Made by a program: the position numbers and the translations under genes. Shown in pieces: positions 4,323 to 61,726 of a DNA stretch of 64,000 bases (position 1 is its first letter; every line of letters begins with the position of its first letter). The stretch covers positions 736,001 through 800,000 of the forward strand of contig CAXXHB010000003.1 in the NCBI GenBank assembly GCA_963664815.2, read 5' to 3'. The stretch is from Spirochaetota bacterium (GTDB taxonomy: Bacteria > Spirochaetota > UBA4802 > UBA5550). The notes under the pieces are model-generated. The model made no database searches and was not told the origin of the DNA. It saw nothing but the letters and a program-made list of their open reading frames with translations.

Positions 4323-5870
4323 GTGCCTGAAAAAAGATCAAAACTGATTCTTATCCGGACAATTGCAGGATTGTTTGTATTGTTCTCGGGAATTTCAATG
4401 ATTATGAATTATCATTATATAATGAAAAGCGTAGCTGACGGATTGAATAAAGACAGTATTTCGGCAAACCTCCTTGGAAAGCTTTTAAGGGAACATGAAA
4501 GGGCATCAATAAATATCCTGAACTCATATGCCTCCAGGCCTCTTTTTATAGAAGCGGTAATGAAAAGGGACCTTCCGGGCGTAAGGTATCACATGAATGA
4601 TTTAAACCATAACAACGGTGAAATGGATCTCTCTTTCCTGACAGATGATAAAGGAAGGCTATGGGCAAATTACCCCGATTTTCCCGAAGCACTGGGGAGA
4701 GATCTCTCCGACCGTGACTGGTATAAAGGTGTAAGCAGATCCTGGAAACCTTATATCTCCAAAGTTTTTCAGCTTATAGTGAAGGATAGACCGCTTGCAG
4801 TTGCGCTCACTGTGCCGGTAAAAGACTGGGGAGGAAAGGTTATAGGTATTCTTGGGAACTCGCAGAGGCTGAGTTTCCTGGCGAGCATGCTCTCGGCTAT
4901 AAAGTCAAACCCTGCTGCATCATTCAGCGTAATAGACAGCGACGGGAATATACTCTACAGTAACATGTATTTATATATGGAAAAAATTACAGAGTATCCA
5001 TTCTATCCGGCTGTCCTGAAGGCTGCTGAGGATAAGAGATCACAGGTCGTTGTTCATTCTGTAAAGAAACTGACAGACAACAGGTACCTGACCATACAGC
5101 CTGTTGAAAATATTAACTGGACTATTGTAATAGAAAGATTATTCTCTGACAGCCTCATTACAGAATTCTATAATCTGATTCAGATAAATGTCATTCTGTT
5201 CCTTATTTTTCTGGTTATAACTGTATTCGTTATATATCAGAATTATCTGTATGAGAAAAATAAAATTCTGTATGAAAAGGAGATTATTCTGAAAGAGGTT
5301 CATCACAGGGTAAAAAACAACATGAATACAATTCTTGCTTTGCTTACGCTCCAGGCTGAAGCTCAGGAGGACACGGCTGTGAGCGGAGTACTGAATAATG
5401 CGGCCGGCAGCGTGCAGTGTATGATGCTGCTGTATGACAAGCTGTATCGTTCAGAAAACAGCGGCGTGATATCGCTAATGGAGTTTCTCCCTCAGCTGAC
5501 AGGTGAGATAGTAAGATTGTTCCCGGGGGCTGAATCGGTAAAGATTACAACTCAGATTGATGATATAATCCTTGGTGCTGAACTGGTATCAACACTTGGG
5601 ATTGTTATTAATGAACTTGTGACTAATGCAATGAAATATGCATATCCCGGGCGTAATGACATGACCATAACATTGACTGCTTCAAAAAGCGGCGGGCGTG
5701 TCAGAATTGTTTTTCAGGATGATGGTCCGGGTCTTCCGGAAGAAATTACATTTGAAAACTCATCAGGTTTCGGGATGCAGCTTGTTCATATGCTTGTACA
5801 ACAGATTAATGGATCAATTGCTGTTGAAAGAAACAATGGCACAAGGTTCATTATAGAATTTGAAGCATAG
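4323..5870 (+). CDS. sensor histidine kinase (dCache + HisKA_2/HATPase)
   Basis: EVHHRVKNN H-box, NELVTNAMKYA N-box, DDGPG, GFG; DLSDRDWY Cache motif; GTG start at 4323 after AGAGGCGG chosen over 4257. Confidence 0.9.
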   Translation: MPEKRSKLILIRTIAGLFVLFSGISMIMNYHYIMKSVADGLNKDSISANLLGKLLREHERASINILNSYASRPLFIEAVMKRDLPGVRYHMNDLNHNNGEMDLSFLTDDKGRLWANYPDFPEALGRDLSDRDWYKGVSRSWKPYISKVFQLIVKDRPLAVALTVPVKDWGGKVIGILGNSQRLSFLASMLSAIKSNPAASFSVIDSDGNILYSNMYLYMEKITEYPFYPAVLKAAEDKRSQVVVHSVKKLTDNRYLTIQPVENINWTIVIERLFSDSLITEFYNLIQINVILFLIFLVITVFVIYQNYLYEKNKILYEKEIILKEVHHRVKNNMNTILALLTLQAEAQEDTAVSGVLNNAAGSVQCMMLLYDKLYRSENSGVISLMEFLPQLTGEIVRLFPGAESVKITTQIDDIILGAELVSTLGIVINELVTNAMKYAYPGRNDMTITLTASKSGGRVRIVFQDDGPGLPEEITFENSSGFGMQLVHMLVQQINGSIAVERNNGTRFIIEFEA

Positions 5871-5921
5871 ATTGTTGCCGGTAATGTATAAGAGAATTAT
5901 CGGCAACAATCTATGCTTCAA
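5860..5921. terminator. long perfect inverted repeat between convergent genes (bidirectional terminator candidate)
   Basis: TTGAAGCATAGATTGTTGCCG ... CGGCAACAATCTATGCTTCAA, 21-bp perfect arms. Confidence 0.7.
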
Positions 5922-5967
5922 TAATTAAAGAGCATATTGATAAACTGAATTTCCCGGATTAAAAAAG

Positions 5968-8007
5968 TCAGTCCTGTTCTTTATTGTTAAGTTTAAAAAT
6001 GTTGACTGTTTCCAGAAGACAGGAGGCGCTTTTCCTGTTATCATTTATCAATTCGGCCACTTTATTAACCTGATCCACAATTTTTACCAGATGTTCATTG
6101 ATGTATCCGGCTTCCATCGCACTGCTGCCGCTGGATTGGGCAATCTGATCAACTGACTGCACCACATGCGCGATCATTTTCTTTAGAGCTTCACTTCCCA
6201 GATTAAATTCATTCATAAGACTGGCGATGCTTTCCGCGTCGGCATTATACTGTTCTCCGGTCTCTACGAAATTCCTGTAATCCTGTGCTATATTCGTGTC
6301 AATAAAGTTTACCAGCTCACTTGAGCTTTCTACCAGATACTGAACTGATTCATATACCTGGCTGGTAATGGTCTGAATATCACTGGCGGTAACTGAAGAC
6401 TGCTCTGCCAGTTTTCTGACTTCTTCTGCAACGACGGCAAAACCAAGTCCAGCTTCACCGGCTCTTGCAGCTTCAATAGCTGCATTTAAGGCCAGCAGGT
6501 TGCTCTGTTCTGCAATACCGAGTATTTCACCTGTAAGCATATTTATTCTGTGGACAACCTGGGCCTCATCTACTGCTTTTGTCAGTTTATTACGGGTTTT
6601 TTCCAGCAGAGAGGCTGTATTGGCATTGGATTCAGTTGCTGTAGCCTTTAATTTAACCGCTCTTTGAAGCATCTCCCTGGCCTGAATAGCGCCGGATGCC
6701 GCATTATCACTGGATTTTTCCAGCATTCCGGAAATATCCCTGGAGGCTGCATTGAGCTCTTCGGTAGACGCGGCTGTCTCTTCCATGCCGGCTGATATCT
6801 GCTCTATCTTTAGCGATATCTCCTGCACGGAAACCTGAAGTTGTTCAAAACTGCTGCGTGCCTTGTCAGCGCTTTCCTCAACACTCTTACTTTCAGTCAA
6901 TACACCCTGTACAATACCCTGAAGGTTTGTTACCATGCCGGCTGAATTCCTGCTTAATTGACCTATCTCATCATTGGTGCTGAGGCTTTTTATATCAACC
7001 GCAAGATTACCTTTTGCTATTTCCATGGTAACCCGGCTTAAGTCTTTTAATGGCTCGGAAATCTTCTTCCCGAAAAATAAGGCCAGGGCCGGCACGATCA
7101 ATATAGCTGCAAGGATTGTAATGTAAACATACCATGATGTGGTTTTAACCGGTTTCATGTACAGATCAACTGTCGTGGCGCACCATATATACCAGCCCTG
7201 CCCTGAGTCTGCATTAAAGGTATATGGATTAAATGCCATCAGTTTGGGCACACCATTCAGGGTATAGAAAGCATGATCAGCCTTATTCAGCTTCATTCGT
7301 CCAAAAATTTTTTCCAGGCCATTGGTCTGTGTTTTATAGTCATAAGTAAGAATGTAACTCTTGTTGTCATGCGATATTACAAAACCGTCATTGGAAATAA
7401 TGCCGAAGATAAGTTCCTGGTGATACGGATCATGGCTGATGGTGGCACTTGTTAAAATTTCATAATCAATTGCGATAAGCACTCCTCCGATGATTCGTCC
7501 CTGATTATTATGTACAGGTGTGGAAAGAACAGTGACAGCTTTGCCGTTGGAAACTGTGCGGAATACCGGGCTGAGTATCTGCTTATCTGATCTGATCATC
7601 TGAGTAAAATAAGGTGTTTGAGTGAAATTTGAAAATGGAATAGTCTGTGCGCTGTCATAGACTACTGTACCATTCGCCCTGACCAGCAGAGAATCGGTCA
7701 ACAATCCTTTGCCATGATCAATAAGGTATTTAAGATTACTTTCCAGGATGGAATTTCTGCCCCCCCCCTCCAGGGATGAGATTATAACAGGCTGTCTGGA
7801 TGTAGTCTGCATCAACATTTGTAAAGTATTGATTTTCTCGCTCAATAAGATCGTGCGGTCATTGGCCAGACTGGCCATAGTATCAACCTGTTCGCTGTTT
7901 ATAGTATTAGAAAAACGATTAATGCTAAGAAAGCCGATAAATCCAACCGGCACCAGGGCCAACAGTATAGAAAATATTACAATTTTTATAAATAATTTGT
8001 TTAACAT
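5968..8007 (-). CDS. methyl-accepting chemotaxis protein (dCache-HAMP-MA)
   Basis: Two TMs, [44 protein letters not shown]. Confidence 0.95.
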
Positions 8008-43195: not shown

Positions 43196-44377
43196 ATGAC
43201 TGAAATGAAGAGATTATCAGTTGAAGAACTGAAGCCGGGAATGGTTTTCAGCAAGAGTGTCTATATAAGCAGCGATGATATTCTGCTCGCGCCAAGTGTT
43301 CCCCTTAAGAGTGAAGATATAAAAAAACTCATGAAATGGGGGGTAACAATTGTAGAAACGGCTGGCGATCTGATTCAGTCCGGCACGGCAACCAGAGCAA
43401 ATGCATCTCTTAAAAGCGGACAGGTTCTTGAGAGTTACGAGCAGCTCCTGACTATGAGAAAAAGGTTTATTGAAATTCACGGTAACGCCTGTTTCCTTAT
43501 TGAACAGGTTTATATTGCCGTAAGGAAGGATCGCTCCATTGAGCTCCCGGCAGTACAGAAAACTGTAAATGATATCATTGGTCTGCTTAAAGAAAACAGC
43601 AATGTTTTTCTTTTTCTTAACGGTTTTGACGATGTTGAAAGAAACTATCTTGTAACACATTCCGTCAATGTTACCTTTTACAGCCTTATCCTTGGCCAGG
43701 CGATGAACTATAACGAGAAACAGATGCTTGAACTTGGAACAGGTACAATCCTTATTGATGCCGGAATGACAAAGGTTCCGGTTTATATAGTCCATAAGCA
43801 GTCAAGACTGACTGACAGTGAATATCAGATGATAAAGGCTCATCCTGTTCACGGGTATAAATCGCTTCGAAGCTACCCGCAGATTAATGAAAAAATAACC
43901 AATATATCCCTTCAGCATCATGAGCAGTTTGATGGAAAAGGTTATCCCAGAGGTTTAAAAGGAAAAGAGATTGATGAATACGCCCGAATTGCGTCTATAG
44001 CAGACAGTTATGAATCCCAGATATCAAACAGAAGCTACAGGGAAAAAGTCGGAGCCTATCATGCGATGAAGAATCTCCTTGCAGGTGGTGTTAATAAATT
44101 TGATCCTGAGATCCTGAAAATATTTTTATCACGAATGTCCGTATATCCCATAGGCTCACTGGTTGAATTAAATGATCAGACCATCGGGCTTGTAATAGGC
44201 TCCATAGCCGAGAAGCCTCTGCGACCTGTTATCAAGCTGGTATTCGACTCCAGGCATGAGAAGATTGCAGATACGCAGATTATAAATCTGCTTGAAGATA
44301 CAACAAAGTACATAACTAAGGTACTTAATGAAAAAGAAGCTGGGATAAATCTCTTCGATGTTCTCTGGGGTTATTAA
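43196..44377 (+). CDS. HD-GYP domain protein with degenerate HD (ID)
   Basis: THSVNV, ILIDAGM, HPVHGY, HHEQFDGKGYPRGL, IADSY, YPIGSLVELN. Confidence 0.9.
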   Translation: MTEMKRLSVEELKPGMVFSKSVYISSDDILLAPSVPLKSEDIKKLMKWGVTIVETAGDLIQSGTATRANASLKSGQVLESYEQLLTMRKRFIEIHGNACFLIEQVYIAVRKDRSIELPAVQKTVNDIIGLLKENSNVFLFLNGFDDVERNYLVTHSVNVTFYSLILGQAMNYNEKQMLELGTGTILIDAGMTKVPVYIVHKQSRLTDSEYQMIKAHPVHGYKSLRSYPQINEKITNISLQHHEQFDGKGYPRGLKGKEIDEYARIASIADSYESQISNRSYREKVGAYHAMKNLLAGGVNKFDPEILKIFLSRMSVYPIGSLVELNDQTIGLVIGSIAEKPLRPVIKLVFDSRHEKIADTQIINLLEDTTKYITKVLNEKEAGINLFDVLWGY

Positions 44378-51865: not shown

Positions 51866-52660
51866 ATGTCATCGAGGTTTGGTTACAATGGTAAACAGAC
51901 GATAAAATATCTGCTCTTTGTGTTTCTCTTCTTAACAGTTCACAGCGATCTGTCCGGCGAAGAAGCATTTATTGTCTGCTATGTTGACAGATACCCTTAT
52001 CATTATATGGAAAATGGAATTATCAGGGGAGTTGCAGGTGAAGCTGCAGACTACGCGTTCAGGAAATCAGGTTTTTCCTACAGGTGGCAGGAGACCCCTG
52101 CAAAACGTATGATGGCGATGCTAAAAGATAATGCTGAAAAGGTTGTAATGGTGGGATGGTTCAAAAATTCGGAGAGAGAAAAGATCGGCAGATTTTCAAT
52201 ACCTGTGTACCGTGACAAACATCATATGATAATTTCAAAAACATCAAACGAAATAATAAACAGCAAAAAGTCATTCTCTTCACTGCTTGCTGACAATAGA
52301 TTAACCTTGATTATAAAGGATGGATATTCCTACGGGAAACATCTGGATGAGTTAATAAAAAAAGACCGGACAAATACGCAGAAGGTAACGGTTGATATGG
52401 TGAAAATGGTGCAGATGATTAATTCAGGGAGAGGTGATTACATGTTTTCAACGCAGGAGGAGGGTGAGTATCTTATAAAATCATCAGGAGTGCACAGAAA
52501 AAATGTTGTGCTGAAAACATTTCCAGATTCTCCCCCAGGGGAATTCAGGTATCTTTTCTTCAGTAAAAAAGTAACCGACAGCGAAATTAGAATAATAAAC
52601 AGGTATATCAGGGAATTCAATAACAAGGGGAAACAACAACTCAACTCTGCTCCTCATTAA
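51866..52660 (+). CDS. periplasmic substrate-binding protein (family 3-like)
   Basis: DRYPYHY, P.KR, WFKNSERE...FS.P.Y, GYSYG, GRGDY. Confidence 0.8.
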   Translation: MSSRFGYNGKQTIKYLLFVFLFLTVHSDLSGEEAFIVCYVDRYPYHYMENGIIRGVAGEAADYAFRKSGFSYRWQETPAKRMMAMLKDNAEKVVMVGWFKNSEREKIGRFSIPVYRDKHHMIISKTSNEIINSKKSFSSLLADNRLTLIIKDGYSYGKHLDELIKKDRTNTQKVTVDMVKMVQMINSGRGDYMFSTQEEGEYLIKSSGVHRKNVVLKTFPDSPPGEFRYLFFSKKVTDSEIRIINRYIREFNNKGKQQLNSAPH

Positions 52661-54860
52661 GTATTGAACTTAGCTTCTTTGAAAGCTGAAAAATTGAAAA
52701 TGGTTTAACGATAAAATCTTTAACGCCGGCTTTTTTTACATTTTCAATAAGTTCATTTGAATAAAGTCCGGAAGTCATCAGGATTTTTATTTCCGGGTTT
52801 TGCTTCATCAGATCAATTAGCGCTTCGTATCCCGATTTGACCGGCATTACCATATCCAGTATTACTGCCCGGATGATACCGGCGTTCTCACGGTATAGTT
52901 TAACAGCGTCTTCTCCGTTTGATCCGGTTATGAAAGAGTAACCGCATTCGGCAAGAATTGAACATGTAATATTACGCATAGATTCCTCGTCATCGACAAC
53001 AAGTATTGTCCCTTCACCGGTAAATATTGACTTACCGGCTGTTTTTTCAGCTTCTGATACATTTTCACTGCAGGCCGGAAGGTAAATAGAAAACACCGTG
53101 CCAATACCGATTTCCGAATACACATCAATAAATCCATGATGAGCCTTGATAATGGAGTATACTATTGAAAGCCCCAGGCCGGTACCTTTAACTGTTGTCT
53201 GGATTTTTGTAGTGAAAAATGGATCAAATATTTTAAGAAGTGTATTTTTATCCATCCCTGTTCCTGTATCTTTCACACTTACACGCCAGTAATCCCCTGG
53301 TATGGCTTCAGGGTGTGATTCAATAAAGAAACGGTCAGAAATTGTTTTTATAATTTCAATATCCAGGTGACCGCCCTGGTGTTCTTCAGGTTTTCTCATA
53401 ATTGTCATTGAATGAGCAGCGTTAATACAGAGATTAAGGAGTACCTGGTGTATCTGTGAATTGCTCATCATCGCATACGCTTCTTTTGCATGTTTCTTTA
53501 TGGAAATGGTGATGGATTTATCGAAGGATTTTATACAGATTTCCCCGATCTGATCAATAACTTCATTGATATCGTGAGGTTTGAGTTCAAAATCAGAATC
53601 TTTTTTTGATAAATTCATAAGCTGCGACGCTATTGCTGCTCCGTTCTCACAGCTTTTCTCTACAAGATCAAGGTCTCTGCTTAAGTCCTCAGGTTTTTTA
53701 ATTTTACCCTGTATAATTTTAAATTTCAGCAGGGAAGCTGTAGCTAGTATGCCTCCGAGAATATTGTTGAAGTCATGCGCCACTCCACCTGCCAGAAGGC
53801 CTATACTTTCCATTTTCTGGATGTGCCGGATCTGTTCATCCTTTTTCTGCAGTTCAGTTATATCATCAATCCTGAGCACCAGACTCTCAGAATGTTCATG
53901 TCGCAGCATGAAAATGAAGATATTAAACAGCATATCATCATAACCGGGCAGAGATATACGATAGAGAGAATAAGGTTTATCAAAGGAAATAAATTCTTTT
54001 ATATTCAGTAAAAAGACTGCAATTTCCGGTTTTATATCTTTTAAAAATCTCCCCGGGGCTTTTTCTGTTGTAATACCCATAAACTGGCCAGCTAGCCTGT
54101 TGCATTCAATTATTTTCCATTCATGGTCAAACTGAATAATTATTGAAGGCATGAATTCAATAATGGATTTTATTGAAGATATGCTCTCCTTGACCTTATA
54201 CATCATGTTGTTAAAATTTTCTGCAAGCTTACCGATTTCATCGTTGCTATCAACGGAAATACTATTAGACATATCGCCGCAGGATATTTTATCAACTACA
54301 GCCAGCATTTCATCCAGAGGTTTTATAACTCTCTTTGTTATTATCCATATGCTCTGGAGCACTATCAGAAAGGTTACAACAAACAGGCCGATAAGTTTGA
54401 AAATAATTGACAGTAAGATTCGGTTGTATACATCTTTTGTTACTACAAGTTCAAGTTCCCCGAATTTCTGATTGTTTTTCATAATATCTTTTTTTATTGT
54501 AATGCCCTCTGATTTGACAGGTTTGCTATCCAGATTCAGGATAATATCTCCCTTGTCATCAGTAATCCTGATTTTTGCGATCTCGGGATTAGTGTAAAAT
54601 GCCATGCAGGTATCGTTTAAACCCTGCGTGTTGAAATTCCAGATATGGTCAACGCTGCTTAATGCAATAAGTCTGGCATATCTCTCGGAGTTCTCCTGGA
54701 GAGCTCTTTTATTTTGAAGGTTCTGATCAACAAGCAGATATATGGTAAAAACTGCAAAGCATATGAATATAACCATTCCGGCGGGGATTGAAAATTTTTG
54801 CCGGAGGCTGAGACTGTTCATATAAGTCTTTATTTTTTTATTGAATATATTTAAGTCCAT
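52641..54860 (-). CDS. hybrid sensor histidine kinase (HAMP-PAS-HisKA-HATPase-REC)
   Basis: QKMESIGLLAGGVAHDFNNIL, NLCINA, DTGTGM, FDPFFTTK, GTGLGL; REC ILVVDDE, LDMVMP, KPF. Confidence 0.95.
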   Translation of the reverse strand: MDLNIFNKKIKTYMNSLSLRQKFSIPAGMVIFICFAVFTIYLLVDQNLQNKRALQENSERYARLIALSSVDHIWNFNTQGLNDTCMAFYTNPEIAKIRITDDKGDIILNLDSKPVKSEGITIKKDIMKNNQKFGELELVVTKDVYNRILLSIIFKLIGLFVVTFLIVLQSIWIITKRVIKPLDEMLAVVDKISCGDMSNSISVDSNDEIGKLAENFNNMMYKVKESISSIKSIIEFMPSIIIQFDHEWKIIECNRLAGQFMGITTEKAPGRFLKDIKPEIAVFLLNIKEFISFDKPYSLYRISLPGYDDMLFNIFIFMLRHEHSESLVLRIDDITELQKKDEQIRHIQKMESIGLLAGGVAHDFNNILGGILATASLLKFKIIQGKIKKPEDLSRDLDLVEKSCENGAAIASQLMNLSKKDSDFELKPHDINEVIDQIGEICIKSFDKSITISIKKHAKEAYAMMSNSQIHQVLLNLCINAAHSMTIMRKPEEHQGGHLDIEIIKTISDRFFIESHPEAIPGDYWRVSVKDTGTGMDKNTLLKIFDPFFTTKIQTTVKGTGLGLSIVYSIIKAHHGFIDVYSEIGIGTVFSIYLPACSENVSEAEKTAGKSIFTGEGTILVVDDEESMRNITCSILAECGYSFITGSNGEDAVKLYRENAGIIRAVILDMVMPVKSGYEALIDLMKQNPEIKILMTSGLYSNELIENVKKAGVKDFIVKPFSIFQLSKKLSSILNEEQS

Positions 54861-55503: not shown

Positions 55504-57570
55504 ATGGCAGTGATTAAAAGTTTATTCCTAAAAAAGAATCGCGAAGATGTAAATGATTCTATGTTGGCAACTGAAAATGAATTTTCAAATGAGGCTGAAA
55601 AGGCGCCGTCAATCAGTGTCCTCAGCCTGAATTCCTCGCAAATCAATCCTGGTACTCTGAAGGAGTTGTATTCAGAGGATGAAGCTCCTCAGCTTGTTAT
55701 CGGGTTTGTATCCCCGCATCTTGATTTCCGGATGATAAGTTCAAAAATCGGCAGTGCACTACCAGATGTAAAAAATATTCTGCTCTGTACTACAGCGGGC
55801 GAGCTTTCCTGTGACGGCTCCGGCACTACAACAGCATATCATGATACAGGAGACAGGTGGGACAGTGTAGTGCTTCAGGGGTTCAACGGAGAGATATTTG
55901 ATAAAGTGGTTTTAAAAGCTATACCGCTTTTTTCAGAGGATATAAGGTCGGGAAGAGTAACGCGTACTATTCAGGAGAGAATTGATCTTATATCGGGTGA
56001 GCTGAAGAAAATTGATCTCCCCTTCAGGATTCACTATGAAGATACAATTGCCTTTACGCTTATTGACGGTCTTTCAAACAGCGAAAGTTTTTTCATGGAG
56101 GCTGTCTATAATTCAGGAATTCTCCCATGTCTCTTTGTAGGAGGTTCAGCCGGAGGGAAGCTGGATTTTAAAAATACATATATATACTGCAACGGTAAGG
56201 TTTATGAAAACCATGCGGTAATATCATTCATGAAATTAAAACAGGGAATAAAATTCGGAATTCTTAAATCCCAGAATTTTGAGAAGACCGGTACTAAATT
56301 CATGATTCTTGAATCGGATACAGCGAAGAGGTTCGTAAAAACGGTTTATAACCCTTCTGAAAAGACTGTGACAAATTTTGTTGATGAACTATGCTCGTGC
56401 TTTAAATGCAGGCCTGAAAATCTGGACGGAAAACTGAATGACTATACATTTGGTATAGAAATTGACGGTGAATTATATGTACGATCTGTATCCGGCATAG
56501 ATATAAAAGAAAAACAGGTGAATTTTTACTGTGACGTTTCAAAGGGTGATGAACTTTTTCTCATTAAAAAAACAGACTTTGTTGATACAACACGGAGAGA
56601 CTTCGAAAAATTTGTCAGCGAAAAAGAAGGTTATGCCGAGCCGATCGGCGCACTGCTTAATGACTGTATTCTACGAAGGCTGAATAATATGAATCTGCTG
56701 GGCAGGGTTACTCATTTCAGCAAAATACCGGCAGCGGGATTTTCAACATTCGGTGAGCTTCTTGGCGTTAACATAAATCAGACCCTCACTGCCATATTCT
56801 TTTTCAGGGAACTGGCCGCCGGTAAATTCCGTGATTACTACGTTGATACTTTTGTTCATCAGTATTCATGTTTTAAGGATTATTTTAACAGCCGGAGAAT
56901 CAATCAGCTGGAGCAGATTAATGCTATAAGGAAAAACATGTTTGATACTGTCGATTCAAGAATATCAATGGTTAAACAGAGTGTAGACAATTTCGGGAAG
57001 ATCCGGAATTTCTCTGACAGCGTTCATGGCGATCTCACTGCTGTAAATAACCAGTTCAGGGACTTTCTGAAGGGTGTAACAAGCACATCCGGTTCGTATA
57101 CCACTCTTGCTGAGGGGGCCAGAGGTATGGAGACATCTGCGGGGCAGGTTAAATCAATACTCGATGTTATAGCGGAGCTTTCTGACCAGACTAACATGCT
57201 TGCATTGAATGCAGCGATAGAGGCAGCCAGGGCAGGAGATCAGGGACGCGGTTTTGCTGTTGTTGCTGATGAAGTAAAAAAACTTGCCGACAGTACACAG
57301 GCTCAGCTTAAAGAGAGTAACACGGTCATAAATGGAATAACTGATCAGATTAAAAAGATAAGCCTTGCCATTGCCTCGCTGAACAGTCAGATGGATCAGG
57401 TAGTTAAGAACAGCTCGTCAATAGATCAGGAAATTACAAGTCTAATGGAGAATTCAGTTTCCATACAGAAAGACTCGGCAGTAATCCTGGAACTTTTAAA
57501 CAGTCTTCTTTTTCTAATAGGTGAGATGGACAATATGAAAAATCTTGAGAGTAAACTGATGGTTGTATAG
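55504..57570 (+). CDS. cytoplasmic chemoreceptor with FIST sensor domains
   Basis: No TM; CTTAGE, LIDGLS, FVGGSAG, DCILRR, GFSTFGE; [17 protein letters not shown]. Confidence 0.9.
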
Positions 57571-57711: not shown

Positions 57712-58821
57712 TTAATTCCAGTTAAATCCCTCTTCGCGAAAAAGGCTGATGCATGCATCAACAACACAGGGTTCATACTTAATCCCCCTGTTTGTTTTTA
57801 TTTCATCAAGAGCCAGTTCCACTCCCGGTGATATTCTGAATGGCCTGTTTGTCCCCATTGCCTCAACTACATCAGCAACACTTAATATTTTTGCCTCGAT
57901 CATTATATCATTCTTTTCGAGACCGAAAGGATATCCGCTTCCGTCAATTCTTTCATGATGCTGCAGAACAATTGAAGCGATCGGCCAGGGAAATTCTATA
58001 TCCTTGAGAATTTCAAATCCGATACGTGGATGCATTTTTATAACATTTAATGCCTCTTCGGAAAGTTGTCCCGGTTTTGTTAAAAATTCACTGGGTACAG
58101 ATATTTTCCCTATATCATGGAGATCCCCTGCTATCATAATGCTTTCAATAGTGGTGTCATCGAGACCGATTTTTTTTGCTATTGAAACTGCAAGTTTCGA
58201 AACGCGCTGCTGATGCCCCACTGTATAAGGGTCACGCATTTCAAGTGCTGATGTAAGGGAATTTACAGTCTGAAGAAACAGTCTGTTAGAAAGCTCAGAT
58301 TTTTCCTTATATTGGCTCGTCCTGATCTGAACAGTTTCCTCCAGCTCCAGGTTAAGAAATTTCATTTCGTCTCTGCTCTTGGTCAGTTCTTTATTCGCTA
58401 AAAAAAGATCCCTGTTTTTTTCGATAAGTTCCTGCTGAAGAAGGGTTATTTCGTTTGCACTTTGCTGAAGAGCCTGCCTGAAAAGATTCTCATTTGTCAC
58501 ATCTTTGATAACTGCAATTGCTTCGTTTTTGTTTTCATAATGAATAAAATAAAGATTAAAAATGATTTCTGTTTCTTCTACCCTGTTAATCCCGATAATA
58601 CGAAACTCATTTTTTTCCCCTGAAATAACCCTGTATATATCATCTTCATATCCGATTACTTCCTGAAAAATTTCTGTTAAATCAAATTTTGTTCTGTTTC
58701 TATCCAGATCCAGATAAGAATAAATTTTATCATGATCAAAATGAATTTCCATATCTCTGTTAACAAACCCGTAATATAAACCGAACCTGTTAAATAGAAA
58801 CATCAGAAATTCATTATTCAT
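57712..58821 (-). CDS. PAS-like/coiled-coil HD-GYP cyclic di-nucleotide phosphodiesterase
   Basis: RDPYTVGHQQRV, LHDIGKI, HHERIDGSGYP, VADVVEAM. Confidence 0.93.
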   Translation of the reverse strand: MNNEFLMFLFNRFGLYYGFVNRDMEIHFDHDKIYSYLDLDRNRTKFDLTEIFQEVIGYEDDIYRVISGEKNEFRIIGINRVEETEIIFNLYFIHYENKNEAIAVIKDVTNENLFRQALQQSANEITLLQQELIEKNRDLFLANKELTKSRDEMKFLNLELEETVQIRTSQYKEKSELSNRLFLQTVNSLTSALEMRDPYTVGHQQRVSKLAVSIAKKIGLDDTTIESIMIAGDLHDIGKISVPSEFLTKPGQLSEEALNVIKMHPRIGFEILKDIEFPWPIASIVLQHHERIDGSGYPFGLEKNDIMIEAKILSVADVVEAMGTNRPFRISPGVELALDEIKTNRGIKYEPCVVDACISLFREEGFNWN

Positions 58822-59342
58822 TTTATTTTACCTTTGTATATGGCAAGACTCAGTTCATTAAATAAATTATCGATATTAAGCCCGTCTTTGGCGCTTGTTG
58901 CTATAATGGAATTTATATTTTTTTCTTTCAGGTTTTTTTTTGCAAGAGCCAGTTGTTCCCCTGAATTTTCCACAAGATCAGACTTGTTCAATGCAACAAA
59001 AAGATTTATACCCGGATCAACACTCTGCAGGAGATCCGCATGCTCGGATATATTTTCAATTGTGTTTTTTCTGGTAAGATCAGCGACAATTATTCCTGCC
59101 GAAGATCCTTTTATATATTCAGACGATATTTTAGTAAATTTATCACCACCGGCAATATCCCATAATAAAAGATCCGCCTTTACAGATTCATTTATTATAA
59201 CTTCTTTTTTTGTTACTTTTACTCCGATTGTTGTCAGATATGTATCACTGAATTCATCGTAGACGAAACGGCGGACAAGGCTTGTTTTTCCTACGGCAAA
59301 ATCTCCAACCATTACAATCTTCCATTTATAGTTCAAACCCAT
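58818..59342 (-). CDS. Rab-like small GTPase (Ras superfamily)
   Basis: G1 GDFAVGKTS, G2 TTIG, G3 WDIAG, G4 NKSD, G5 TSAK; 174 aa. Confidence 0.93.
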   Translation of the reverse strand: MGLNYKWKIVMVGDFAVGKTSLVRRFVYDEFSDTYLTTIGVKVTKKEVIINESVKADLLLWDIAGGDKFTKISSEYIKGSSAGIIVADLTRKNTIENISEHADLLQSVDPGINLFVALNKSDLVENSGEQLALAKKNLKEKNINSIIATSAKDGLNIDNLFNELSLAIYKGKIK

Positions 59343-59448
59343 TTATTTCACCATATTCCGGGAACCAGATAACCTGATCATATTGTTCTTTAATCTTCAA
59401 CTTTTTTTCAATCAGTAAATATTGTTTACTGAATATAATTAACAAAAA

Positions 59449-59919
59449 TTAATACCGGAAATAGTTAATAATGCTTATCCAGAGGAGTAATACAATTTCG
59501 GAAAGAGTTTTGCGCCGGATAAGTTCACTATTTTTCAGGATAATTTCATTTTTTCTCTGCTGAAGCTTTCTGAGGGAGAGACACCCTTCAGTTACATCTT
59601 CAATAATAATAAAGGCGGAATTCTCCTTCCCGGGATTGCTTAAAAAATGCAGGTTGAAGAAAATTTCATTCTTTAATGTTCTGTTAATTGTATTTAAACT
59701 GAATCTTTCTGTCTTCTTAAAGATTACATTTAAAATTTCATCTTCCAGACCGTAAATTTCCGGGAAAAAATCTGTTATTATTTCATTTTTCACCGATTCT
59801 GTAATTTCCAGATAAACCTGTATTTTTTTATCAGTAAAAGAAAGGATTAAAGATGAATTAATAGTTGCATAATAAATTCCTGATTTACTGTTTAATATTT
59901 CTAAAGCGTAATTCAGCAT
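59449..59919 (-). CDS. stand-alone PAS-like protein
   Basis: Colinear similarity to the N-terminus of 57712-58821 (FPEIYGLEDEI, INR, FNL.F, EDVT, LQQ..NEI.L); AGAGG RBS. Confidence 0.75.
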   Translation of the reverse strand: MLNYALEILNSKSGIYYATINSSLILSFTDKKIQVYLEITESVKNEIITDFFPEIYGLEDEILNVIFKKTERFSLNTINRTLKNEIFFNLHFLSNPGKENSAFIIIEDVTEGCLSLRKLQQRKNEIILKNSELIRRKTLSEIVLLLWISIINYFRY

Positions 59920-59977
59920 TCAGTAACCTCTGTTGTTTAATTCACTCGTGATCTGATATTTAAAACCGGTTAAACAG

Positions 59978-61726
59978 CTACTTATTCAGCTTTGCAAACA
60001 GCATAATACCGCGTGTATCCCTGAATTCAGAAAATCTCGGGTCTGAAGTAATCACATCAGGATTAAACTCAGTTATATTTATTCTATTGCCGTTCATTCC
60101 CAGCGAAATCAGATAGTTCTTAATTGACGACATCCTGCCTTCCGCCAGTTTTTTATTGATATCAAAACCCCCCGTCGGATCGTTGAACGCAATTATATCC
60201 ACGTTGATATCGGGATATTTTTTCAGTATTTCATAAATTTTATTTGTCTGAAGTATCTGGTTACTGCCTACTGATGTCACACCAGCAGGAAACTGTATTA
60301 TTATTTTCTGAATTTCCTGGCGTATAAAAAGAATCTGCAGATCATTGAATCTGTTTTCAAAAGATTCTATCTTATTATTAAATTTTTCTACAGTTCTGAA
60401 ATCTGCAGATACTGTTTTATTTTTTATAATCTTTATTTCTGGAAAAGAGGCAACGGTTTTATTAATCTCTTCACCGGTTTGCGGAGACGCCACTACTCCC
60501 TTTATAATAATGGTATCTCCATTAACATCACATTCTATGTCATTTGTAAACGGAGGAAGAGCTTCAGCCAGTTTTGATATTATTGTATTTTCAAGAATGG
60601 AATCTCTTATCTCTCCGGTTATAAAAAGAACGCAGAAAATTAATGCTGTTATTCCTGTTATTCCAGCTGTTATTTTGAGTTTTTTATAAGATTTTTCACC
60701 CGGACCTCCGGGATAATTTACCATATTTGATCTGCTGATAAACTCATTAAGCATCCCGGAGATTCCTCCGAAATTATCCATAGACCCTTTAAAACTTTTA
60801 AGCAGATCCCTGTATTTCCGGTGAATATCATTCAATAAAAAATCTATATTATTGTTAATTTCAAGAGTTGTAGAACCGTGAATTACTACCGCAGCATAAA
60901 AATATATGTTTTCAAAAATTTTTATTTTTGATTCACCAAAACTGATTTCATTCAATTCACTGTCTTCTTTATTAAAAGAAGTTCGGGTAAAATCAGTTAT
61001 TGCAGAGAGCATAGCTGCTACGAGATCCCGATCTGCTTCACTGTTCTCAAACCTGGATCCCTGAGCAATAAGAACTGATGATTTTTTTTCAATAATCAGA
61101 ATTTCATCTATTACACATGGAAGTGATTCCCTCAGGATTATTTCTGCAAGTGGGAGTCCGGATTTAAGTGCAAGAAATTTGTATTTCCACATCTTAAGAC
61201 TCATAGATGACTCAAGTCTGTCATTTATATAGCTTACAAGATCCCTGAATGCGTCAGCAATTTTTTTTGTAATGACTTTACCGATTACCGGAGTTATTAT
61301 ATCAAAAAGATCTGAGGCAGGGATATATTTCATGCTTTTCATGTAGTCTACTTCATGTTCCAGATGTTTTATTTTTCTTGCATTTATATATGCAAGTGTA
61401 ATTTCTTCAATTTTCTCATCTATTTCATGAAATGATATATGAACAAATTTTCCTACTGGTTTGAATTCTATAATTCTGCATCGATGGAGAGAGTTAATGC
61501 TCTGATAAACCTCCATGGCTGTAAGTTCGGCAGATTCCGCGATAACATTGTAGTGTGTCCGGACTTCCACTTTTCCCTGGCTGGACAGATCAAGTAAAAC
61601 TCCCAGCACAATTGCATCAGTATCATCAAGCTTATATTTTTTTAGATAGTGCCTTAGTACAGGGTTATCGAGAAGAGAGGTTTTGTTTATCAAAGCGAGT
61701 TGCTTTTTAATTTCTTCTTTTTTCAT
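59978..61726 (-). CDS. membrane protein: wHTH-like + longin/roadblock-like + TM + BON + OmpA-like
   Basis: HYNVIAESAELT..EVYQSINSL; DLVAAMLSAITDF; one TM; TIIIKGVV..IKNK; IQF...NDPTG...NKKLAEGRM. Confidence 0.75.
   Translation of the reverse strand: MKKEEIKKQLALINKTSLLDNPVLRHYLKKYKLDDTDAIVLGVLLDLSSQGKVEVRTHYNVIAESAELTAMEVYQSINSLHRCRIIEFKPVGKFVHISFHEIDEKIEEITLAYINARKIKHLEHEVDYMKSMKYIPASDLFDIITPVIGKVITKKIADAFRDLVSYINDRLESSMSLKMWKYKFLALKSGLPLAEIILRESLPCVIDEILIIEKKSSVLIAQGSRFENSEADRDLVAAMLSAITDFTRTSFNKEDSELNEISFGESKIKIFENIYFYAAVVIHGSTTLEINNNIDFLLNDIHRKYRDLLKSFKGSMDNFGGISGMLNEFISRSNMVNYPGGPGEKSYKKLKITAGITGITALIFCVLFITGEIRDSILENTIISKLAEALPPFTNDIECDVNGDTIIIKGVVASPQTGEEINKTVASFPEIKIIKNKTVSADFRTVEKFNNKIESFENRFNDLQILFIRQEIQKIIIQFPAGVTSVGSNQILQTNKIYEILKKYPDINVDIIAFNDPTGGFDINKKLAEGRMSSIKNYLISLGMNGNRINITEFNPDVITSDPRFSEFRDTRGIMLFAKLNK

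Follow-up and report, generated by a model that had tools for sequence, protein, structure and literature searches.

A cassette of four co-oriented genes was found on the minus strand of a 64,000-nucleotide (nt) stretch of the genome of a Spirochaetota bacterium (GTDB lineage Bacteria; Spirochaetota; UBA4802; UBA5550), namely, positions 736,001 to 800,000 of contig CAXXHB010000003.1 of assembly GCA_963664815.2; the whole of this stretch is called the window below. The genes, located at 57712–61726 of the window, encode a single-pass membrane protein, a stand-alone PAS-like protein, a Rab-like small GTPase and a protein in which the same PAS-like domain (hereafter, the N-domain) precedes an HD-GYP domain. 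Together, the four genes make up a Group 1 Rup signalling cassette, the layout of which fits the published description. This kind of cassette has been known since 2014, and the window copy is a spirochaete member of it, with a predicted mechanism. In the proposed relay, to which we assign a probability of about 0.55, the envelope protein would act on the GTPase, and the GTPase on the output protein with the PAS-fold domain, which may in turn supply a catalytic Gln.

Group 1 Rup GTPases were defined computationally by Wuichet and Søgaard-Andersen (2014, Genome Biol Evol 7:57, PMC4316618). According to that paper, they lack the G3 Gln and have three conserved neighbours. One is a coiled-coil protein, another combines an unnamed domain with a transmembrane segment and an OmpA domain, and the third is a signalling output protein. 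The published outputs are of the GGDEF/EAL or histidine kinase type and contain an invariant N-terminal Gln, proposed to be supplied in trans; the paper also states that no member of Rup had been characterised experimentally. A literature search, with subscription journals outside its coverage, gave this paper as the only relevant one on Rup GTPases and found no bench test of a Group 1 Rup cassette or of the longin assignment made below.

Three of the four defining components of Group 1 are present in the window, the separate coiled-coil gene being the missing one. As in the published group, the GTPase is Rab/Ras-like with eukaryote-like, canonical G1–G5 motifs and no catalytic G3 Gln; the neighbouring membrane protein combines a conserved unnamed domain (residues 205–337), a transmembrane helix (352–371) and a C-terminal OmpA-like fold (457–580); and the output protein contains the N-terminal Gln, which is Q120, the same motif occurring in the stand-alone 156-aa protein. 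Unlike the published outputs, those of the window are a lone HD-GYP protein and an apparent relic of a SpoIIE phosphatase, instead of GGDEF/EAL proteins or kinases. These two outputs, an additional winged helix-turn-helix (wHTH)-like domain at the N-terminus of the membrane protein and the lack of a coiled-coil gene are the traits that set the window copy apart from the published group. Spirochaetota are absent among the taxa listed in the available part of PMC4316618, and both conserved domains, which stand there without a fold, are modelled here as longin and PAS.

Three things are added by this analysis, namely, folds for the two previously unnamed Group 1 Rup domains, one docking domain common to at least five classes of output enzyme, and a confident predicted interface with residues to mutate (F15, T37 and Y35 of the GTPase; E54, G57, Q120 and N123 of the N-domain). 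The 2014 hypothesis is now directly testable, and the window copy leaves the kind of system unchanged.

The preliminary description, made from the sequence of the window, had reported four co-oriented genes, an overlap of the HD-GYP gene with the GTPase stop, an intact HD-GYP gene and a GTPase with all G1–G5 motifs and no prenylation tail, and each of these was recovered. Its reading of the architecture is largely right, the relay that it proposed being a prediction. All four open reading frames (ORFs) lie on the minus strand as placed (Table 1). The tetranucleotide ATGA at 58818–58821 is common to the stop of the GTPase gene and the start of the HD-GYP gene, and the remaining intergenic gaps are 58 nt and 106 nt. 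The HD-GYP gene covers nearly the full HD_5 profile with both motifs in place. No RNA sequencing runs carrying the operon were listed; DNA-type runs carrying it numbered five, from two studies.

Small GTPase

The GTPase was identified by Pfam Ras (103.2 bits, E = 1.4e-29) and NCBIfam small_GTP (E = 1.8e-19). The G-motifs are G1 GDFAVGKT (residues 13–20), G2 T38, G3 DIAG (62–65), G4 NKSD (119–122) and G5 SAK (150–152). The prenylated C-terminal Cys motif, a trait of eukaryotic Rabs, is absent, the protein ending in AIYKGKIK with no Cys. Its nearest solved relative is Rab6 (E = 5e-26), followed by Rab11, Ypt7 and Rab1, the E values for Rab6, Rab11 and Ypt7 ranging from 5e-26 to 1e-20; the database label ‘Rab family GTPase’ mirrors this best similarity only. 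The gene is present in a single copy in the 5.2-Mb genome. In our tree, the 15 GTPase rows of spirochaetes fall together with rows of Chloroflexota (18 rows, support 100/99) and away from those of cyanobacteria.

The catalytic Gln that directly follows DxxG in Ras and Rab is replaced by Gly in the window GTPase; among 76 members of the family, the residue at this position is His in 48, Ser in 17, Asn in five, Asp in three, Gly in two and Gln in one. Phe15, at the position of Ras Gly12, is invariant in the same 76 sequences, in which NKxD and SAK are intact and the switch I Thr and DxxG are likewise strictly conserved. The roles of Gly12 and Gln61 in Ras are the basis for expecting weak intrinsic GTP hydrolysis in such a protein. 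Since the catalytic Gln is absent and a bulky Phe occupies the Gly12 position, the window GTPase alone should hydrolyse GTP slowly.

Predicted complex of the GTPase and the N-domain

The complex of the GTPase with residues 1–150 of the HD-GYP protein was predicted from row-paired alignments of 76 sequences with GTP and Mg included. The median interface score ipSAE (interaction prediction score from aligned errors) was 0.79 (0.78, 0.79 and 0.80 in the separate runs) versus 0.02 for the best of three controls. The mark passed here was reached in calibration by 58 of 80 solved complexes and by 2 of 110 mismatched pairs, a calibration that is rough for this case, with its own alignments, GTP and Mg. 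At least 91% of the contacts were common to the runs, and the predicted local distance difference test score (pLDDT) of the partner was at least 87. To our knowledge, no structure of a PAS domain bound to a Ras-like GTPase has been solved, and we consider it unlikely that the predictor reproduced the pass from one.

On the GTPase side, the predicted interface comprises residues 6, 8, 15–16 (P-loop), 35–43 (switch I and strand beta2), 45, 59, 64 and 67 (switch II), 75, 78–79 and 91; on the side of the N-domain, it comprises residues 53–54, 56–58, 75–79, 81, 87 and the helix 112–130. The pairs with the lowest predicted error are T37–Q120, F15–N123, A16–N123 and Y35–Q120, and the interface includes the family-invariant residues F15, Y35, G40 and V41 of the GTPase and E54 and G57 of the N-domain. 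The prediction supports binding of the two proteins, and the model places the conserved Gln where supply in trans, as hypothesised in 2014, needs it. The PAS domain had been proposed in the preliminary description as the effector of the GTPase. Docking through switch I and the P-loop agrees, as a prediction, with that proposal, and the interface fits an effector that also supplies the catalytic Gln rather than a passive one.

Conservation of the gene neighbourhood

The GTPase family is patchy in the phylum: it was found in 12 of 41 near relatives (E ≤ 1e-5) and in 16 of 301 evenly drawn genomes (E ≤ 1e-30). From a scan of one genome per species, the best 80 of 532 GTPase relatives were used; these belong mostly to Cyanobacteriota, with Spirochaetota, Chloroflexota and one representative of Campylobacterales. 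Together with 11 enlarged loci from relatives, they form a linkage set of 91 loci (L013–L103), in which ORFs were called. The proteins of the window served as queries, the longin query being the domain at residues 190–345 of the membrane protein, and a locus was taken to have room upstream with at least 1500 nt of sequence.

In 67 of 80 loci that have room upstream, the gene immediately before that of the GTPase, in the same orientation, encodes the longin-domain protein; this gene is elsewhere in the locus in nine and was not found in four, one of which is cut by the contig end. An N-domain gene immediately follows the GTPase gene in 71 of 85 loci that have room on this side, is elsewhere in four and was not found in ten, two of which (L085 and L099) regained it in a profile search. 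The number of N-domain proteins per locus is zero in 12 loci, one in 41, two in 36 and three in two. Among the 16 spirochaete loci, an N-domain/HD-GYP gene is present in 14 (on the opposite strand in three); of the other two, one ends at a contig border and L013 lacks such a gene. Lack of co-conservation had been named beforehand as one refuting outcome, and these counts left the proposed association standing.

In 47 loci, mainly cyanobacterial, the block is preceded by a conserved coiled-coil ORF of 172–388 aa (about 200 aa in the example inspected). The window and the 16 spirochaete loci contain no separate coiled-coil gene; a cyanobacterial-type coiled-coil protein gave no match in the genome of the window, a weak result from a single query. 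Six longer fusion-type proteins were found at E ≤ 1e-20, among them P0276, which joins the GTPase, a partial N-domain and a kinase, and P0275, in which the longin domain and transmembrane segment are joined to the GTPase via an Arg/Pro-rich stretch. Fusion proteins were not counted as evidence of linkage, these two being single metagenomic sequences of a kind that looks like frameshift read-through of adjacent genes.

Several loci have layouts of their own. Loci L021–L023, from genomes of the same order, contain the GTPase gene followed by a gene for a 421–436-aa N-domain/SpoIIE protein, with an N-domain/HD-GYP gene convergent on the opposite strand. The cyanobacterial loci L063, L087 and L095 contain the GTPase and N-domain outputs without a gene for the longin protein; the GTPase gene is preceded by a small related ORF in L087 (175 aa) and L095 (232 aa) and by an unclustered 205-aa ORF in L063. 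A complete locus (L060) and a reduced one (L095) occur in one genome, that of Coleofasciculus sp. E2-BRE-01. Locus L028, on a 1.6-kb contig binned as ‘uncultured Gudongella sp.’, encodes a GTPase 55% identical to that of the window; its assignment to a Firmicute bin may be an error.

Membrane protein

The AlphaFold2 model of the membrane protein, obtained with an alignment of 46 sequences (mean pLDDT 79.7, predicted template modelling score 0.33), has the domain order wHTH-like, long helices, longin, transmembrane helix, BON and OmpA-like. Of these parts, the longin domain is the sole one conserved across phyla. Its modelled elements are strands 205–213 and 219–224, helix 233–250, strands 260–263, 266–272 and 276–283, and helices 288–310 and 317–334. 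Structural comparison with VIA-align gave the best scores for TRAPP Trs23 (2j3t_D, Z = 13.9, root-mean-square deviation (rmsd) 2.9, 128 aligned residues), Fuzzy (9rs8_A, Z = 13.3), VAMP7 (4afi_A, Z = 13.2) and Sec22b (1ifq_A, Z = 13.2), followed by a Lokiarchaeal longin (8yqg_A, Z = 12.1), 3bw6 (Z = 12.0) and Mon1-Ccz1 (5ldd_E, Z = 11.8). Pfam and NCBIfam gave no match over this region at E ≤ 0.01, and its Atlas scores (0.85 for the best cluster and 0.78 for the Roadblock/Fuz_longin cluster) lie under the 0.9 line and are leads only. The model points to a longin fold for residues 205–337, similar to that of the platforms in exchange factors of eukaryotic Rabs. As far as the fold is concerned, this agrees with the discrete longin/roadblock region that had been placed at residues ~200–335.

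On the cytoplasmic side, the modelled helices that precede the longin domain contain the conserved segment D142..P146-x-x-G149, in which P146 and G149 are invariant in the 46 sequences. The wHTH-like region has an Atlas feature score of 0.93 to the HTH_36/MarR/IclR clusters, which is a lead only; used as a query, the N-terminus of the protein matched only in spirochaete loci and in one Anaerolineae copy (L089). The stretch KSYKKLK stands just before the transmembrane helix, and the positive-inside rule suggests a topology with the N-terminus inside and the C-terminus outside.

In the part beyond the membrane, NCBIfam ArfA/OmpATb_N gave a weak match at residues 383–435, and Pfam BON lies above its cut-off in homologues, for example, in L019 (35.7 bits) and L031 (48 bits). 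The OmpA-like domain was aligned by VIA-align with 9uu2 (Z = 13.6), 5wtp_A (Z = 13.0) and YfiB 5eb1_B (Z = 12.4), and by Foldseek with 5wtl_D (E = 8e-07); Pfam OmpA in the window copy is under the cut-off (20.6 versus 27.2 bits). Residues D516 and R531, which we take to be the Asp/Arg pair contacting the peptide stem in OmpA-like domains, are kept in 37 and 43 of the 46 sequences, respectively. BON, OmpA or both were detected at E ≤ 1e-3 in 22 of the 25 homologues scanned, the three Chloroflexota versions lacking both, and together with the fit of the modelled domain to OmpA-like structures this upholds the BON/OmpA C-terminus of the preliminary description. The periplasmic BON and OmpA-like domains probably hold peptidoglycan or otherwise report the state of the envelope.

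Output proteins

The N-domain of the HD-GYP protein (residues 1–108; mean pLDDT of the whole model 77.9) was aligned by VIA-align with the PAS domains of PYP, FixL and LOV proteins with Z = 9.2–10.2 and an rmsd of about 3 over about 100 residues. Pfam PAS gave no match on the N-domains of the window, and the family profile reaches ordinary PAS domains only at E = 1.3e-6. In 76 N-domain sequences, E54, G57 and T109 are invariant, and Q120, N123 and E124, on the long helix that follows, are kept in 74, 68 and 67, respectively. A third match of the N-domain in the same genome (L106, E = 1.3e-6) was rejected as an ordinary PAS domain in a receiver-PAS-PAS-kinase protein.

The HD-GYP domain was identified by Pfam HD_5 (115.9 bits against a cut-off of 27.2, E = 2.1e-33, profile positions 3–168 of 170), with HD at residues 235–236 and HHERIDGSGYP at 288–298. 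Its best structural matches are V-cGAP3 (5z7c, Z = 13.6) and DvhD (Z = 12.7–13.5, the value for c-di-GMP-bound 9rbz_A being 12.7). The enzyme probably degrades cyclic di-GMP (c-di-GMP). The genome contains 30 GGDEF and 17 HD_5 matches above the cut-off; therefore, a c-di-GMP network exists in it, and the cassette would be one input among many into this large network. A second HD_5 protein (104 bits) is encoded in the window at ~43649–44113 on the plus strand (G000:C3:779649-780113).

Among 43 downstream proteins scanned, 17 are histidine kinases, 13 are adenylate/guanylate cyclases, seven contain SpoIIE, three contain GGDEF and three contain PAS/GAF only; in most of them, an ordinary Pfam PAS domain at residues ~145–255 follows the N-domain. 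Similarity to the N-domain is colinear with the N-termini, starting at or before residue 40 in 160 of 192 matches and beyond residue 120 in one. The PAS-like domain thus appears to be a dedicated module common to every output enzyme of the system, of which there are at least five classes.

A profile search with the N-domain gave 1717 cluster representatives at E ≤ 1e-3; with the threshold tightened to 1e-10 and 1e-30, the numbers were 838 and 183, respectively. In almost all of the 150 best matches, the N-domain is N-terminal. Internal N-domains were seen in P0217, P0228, P0262, P0268, P0214, P0230, P0231 and P0254, with layouts such as receiver/N-domain/PAS/kinase, receiver/PAS/GAF/N-domain/PAS/SpoIIE and positions behind an OmpR-type wHTH domain. 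Mid-protein N-domains were considered as fusions with the GTPase and rejected, as they are located behind receiver or wHTH domains.

The stand-alone 156-aa protein has no Pfam or NCBIfam match and is 37% identical (E = 2e-20) to residues 1–135 of the HD-GYP protein, the model of which has the PAS fold; the earlier label of this protein as PAS-like is therefore retained. Its orthologues at the same position in genomes of the same genus are proteins of 521–634 aa with the N-domain, one or two PAS domains and SpoIIE. Identity to residues 1–137 of the 521-aa and 634-aa orthologues is 56–63%; similarity ends at residue 137 (window position 59509), and DNA similarity returns immediately ahead of the GTPase gene, with no remnant of SpoIIE found in the window. 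By this comparison of sequences, the 156-aa gene arose through truncation of an N-domain/PAS/SpoIIE phosphatase gene. Since the relic retains all the docking motifs of the N-domain, it may act, speculatively, as a competitor or as a piece with GTPase-activating protein (GAP) function only. Locus L013, at 5222–7733 in the same-genus genome G001, is a mirror image of the window: a gene for a 634-aa N-domain/PAS/PAS/SpoIIE protein precedes the GTPase gene and no HD-GYP gene follows it, whereas the window has lost the phosphatase part and kept HD-GYP.

Proposed mechanism and alternative explanations

In the relay proposed here, the membrane protein would cross the inner membrane once, with the BON and OmpA-like domains in the periplasm and the longin domain just inside the membrane. 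The fold and the gene linkage suggest that the longin domain is a likely platform for loading or unloading the GTPase, as in eukaryotic Rabs. The GTP form of the GTPase would dock via switch I, strand beta2 and the P-loop on the PAS-fold N-domain and the first turns of its exit helix. With Gln120 and Asn123 modelled next to the P-loop and switch I, the output protein may also supply the missing catalytic residue and so end its own signal. From the junction between PAS domain and long helix, the effect of docking would travel along this helix to the HD-GYP domain and alter the breakdown of c-di-GMP or another cyclic dinucleotide. A stronger version of the relay, in which the PAS-fold domain is both effector and GAP, timing its own activation, and the longin domain is the bacterial counterpart of the TRAPP and Mon1-Ccz1 platforms, is put forward tentatively, the odds being against it.

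A number of observations weigh against the relay. Every interaction in it is predicted. The longin gene and the GTPase gene occur without an N-domain gene within ~8 kb in eight loci, and the GTPase and an N-domain gene occur without the longin gene in two to three; therefore, neither partner is obligatory in cis. The conserved residues at the interface are not independent evidence, because the predictor uses the alignments that define them, and no compensating pattern between the residue after DxxG and Q120 was seen in the 76 pairs. In proteins of unseen genomic context, the N-domain stands behind receiver or wHTH domains; it is therefore able to take receiver input in cis and may be a general transmitter module instead of a dock reserved for the GTPase. 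As to the enzyme, residues 240–301 of the HD-GYP protein are poorly modelled, and the tied scores of V-cGAP3 and DvhD do not separate c-di-GMP from cyclic GMP-AMP as the substrate. Scans for promoter-like sites (21 versus 19.4 ± 3.9 in shuffled sequences) and terminator-like sites (4 versus 2.9 ± 2.1) were uninformative.

The roles may be divided in the classic way, the longin domain being the GAP, as MglB is for MglA, or the guanine nucleotide exchange factor, and the N-domain a pure effector in which Gln120 and Asn123 serve the PAS-to-helix junction only. In MglA/MglB, TRAPP, Mon1-Ccz1 and Fuzzy-Inturned, control of the small GTPase lies with a longin or roadblock platform, as the fold matches and PMC3747258 indicate. 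A D-x-T motif and a conserved helix after the PAS domain are ordinary at PAS signalling junctions, and the missing compensating pattern also suits this division. Against it, Q120 and N123 are in the lowest-error contacts of the model with the P-loop (15–16) and switch I (35–37), 74 of 76 N-domains retain the Gln that the GTPases themselves lack, and the authors of PMC4316618 drew the same link to this Gln; we consider the classic division rather unlikely. That the signal flows in the reverse direction is less probable still: the PAS-containing proteins would sense and set the nucleotide state of the GTPase, and the membrane protein would be the output, through its wHTH-like domain, anchoring to the wall or local remodelling of the envelope. 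The further sensory PAS and GAF domains of most outputs, the wHTH-like N-terminus of the spirochaete membrane protein and the eight loci that retain only the longin protein and the GTPase would fit such a direction, but variable catalytic domains such as HD-GYP, GGDEF, cyclase, kinase and phosphatase are typical of outputs, the frequent pairing of one GTPase with two or three N-domain proteins fits the fan-out of a single switch, and the wHTH domain is lineage-specific.

Finally, the GTPase may be a scaffold, permanently GTP-bound or independent of nucleotide, which tethers the outputs to the wall-anchored protein and localises c-di-GMP turnover with no switching. The missing catalytic Gln and the invariant Phe at the Ras Gly12 position agree with this, as does a membrane-anchored partner with a wall-binding-type domain. 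The strict conservation of G1–G5, including the switch I Thr and DxxG, argues for nucleotide-dependent switching instead, and the predicted complex directs the conserved Gln towards the active site; we regard a static scaffold as very unlikely.

If the longin domain does control the GTPase, the Rab/longin pairing, which is at the heart of ideas about how eukaryotic membrane traffic arose, would have a simple bacterial model, and a second route, besides YfiBNR, would lead from the cell wall to c-di-GMP. If the version with a self-timing effector and a longin platform is true, the pairing of Rab-like GTPases with longin domains, so far discussed for eukaryotes and Asgard archaea, works in Bacteria too, where it reports the state of the cell wall to second-messenger enzymes.

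Comparison with known systems

As in MglA/MglB of Myxococcus xanthus and the actinobacterial conservon (CvnA-D/Mfp), a small Ras-like GTPase is encoded together with a protein of the roadblock/longin superfold and is tied to other signalling proteins. Unlike the partners in those systems, that of the window fits longin better than roadblock structures, is integral to the membrane and contains domains of the wall-binding type; its GTPase resembles Rab (Rup) and not MglA, and the outputs of the window type are second-messenger enzymes with a common docking domain. The likeness to the eukaryotic pairs of Rabs and longin exchange factors (TRAPP Bet5/Trs23, Mon1-Ccz1 and Fuzzy-Inturned) is at the level of fold: the GTPase is nearest to Rab6, Rab11 and Ypt7 and the longin domain superposes with Z = 11.8–13.9, but the sequence identity of the longin domains is only 8–12% and the window GTPase has no prenyl tail.

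In Pseudomonas, the diguanylate cyclase of the YfiBNR (TpbB) system is under the control of YfiB, an OmpA/Pal-like lipoprotein. The common feature is an OmpA-like wall-binding protein relaying the state of the envelope to c-di-GMP metabolism, and YfiB is among the fold matches of the C-terminal domain of the membrane protein. YfiB works in the periplasm, through YfiR, on the cyclase, whereas the relay of the window would cross the membrane in one protein and continue through a cytoplasmic GTPase to a phosphodiesterase.

Features of the cassette and neighbouring genes

Table 1. Genes of the Rup cassette and the predicted domains of their products (window positions)
Feature	Residues	Position	Strand	Basis and remarks
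Membrane protein, 582 aa		59978–61726	-	ORF; upstream partner of the GTPase, single-pass
Winged-helix-like N-terminal domain	22–99	61430–61663	-	AlphaFold2, H-H-H-E-H-H-E-E (H, helix; E, strand)
Long cytoplasmic helices	106–201	61124–61411	-	AlphaFold2, helices 106–131, 137–175 and 177–189, pLDDT 54–70
Longin-fold domain	205–337	60716–61114	-	AlphaFold2 model and VIA-align
Transmembrane helix	352–371	60614–60673	-	Sequence and AlphaFold2 helix 348–389
BON-like domain, periplasmic	395–440	60407–60544	-	AlphaFold2, E-E-H-E
OmpA-like domain, putatively peptidoglycan-binding	457–580	59987–60358	-	VIA-align and Foldseek
Stand-alone PAS-like N-domain protein, 156 aa		59449–59919	-	ORF
Rup-type (Rab-like) small GTPase, 174 aa		58818–59342	-	ORF; Pfam Ras, E = 1.4e-29
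N-domain/HD-GYP protein, 369 aa		57712–58821	-	ORF
PAS-fold N-domain	1–108	58498–58821	-	AlphaFold2; motif F52-x-E54..G57-x-E59
Long connecting helix	109–196	58234–58497	-	AlphaFold2, pLDDT 88–95 at 110–170; T109, Q120, N123, E124
HD-GYP catalytic domain	189–351	57769–58257	-	Pfam HD_5; putative cyclic-dinucleotide phosphodiesterase

A gene convergent with the Rup operon, at 55504–57570 on the plus strand, encodes a 688-aa protein in which a FIST_N and FIST_C sensor is fused to the signalling domain of methyl-accepting chemotaxis proteins (MCP); it is NosP-like (NCBIfam E = 7.6e-37), far under the cut-off of that family. This FIST-MCP neighbour was considered as a fifth member of the cassette and rejected, since MCP-like ORFs are near only three of the 16 spirochaete loci. 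The gene at 52641–54860 on the minus strand encodes a hybrid histidine kinase of 739 aa, which combines HAMP, HisKA, HATPase and receiver domains.

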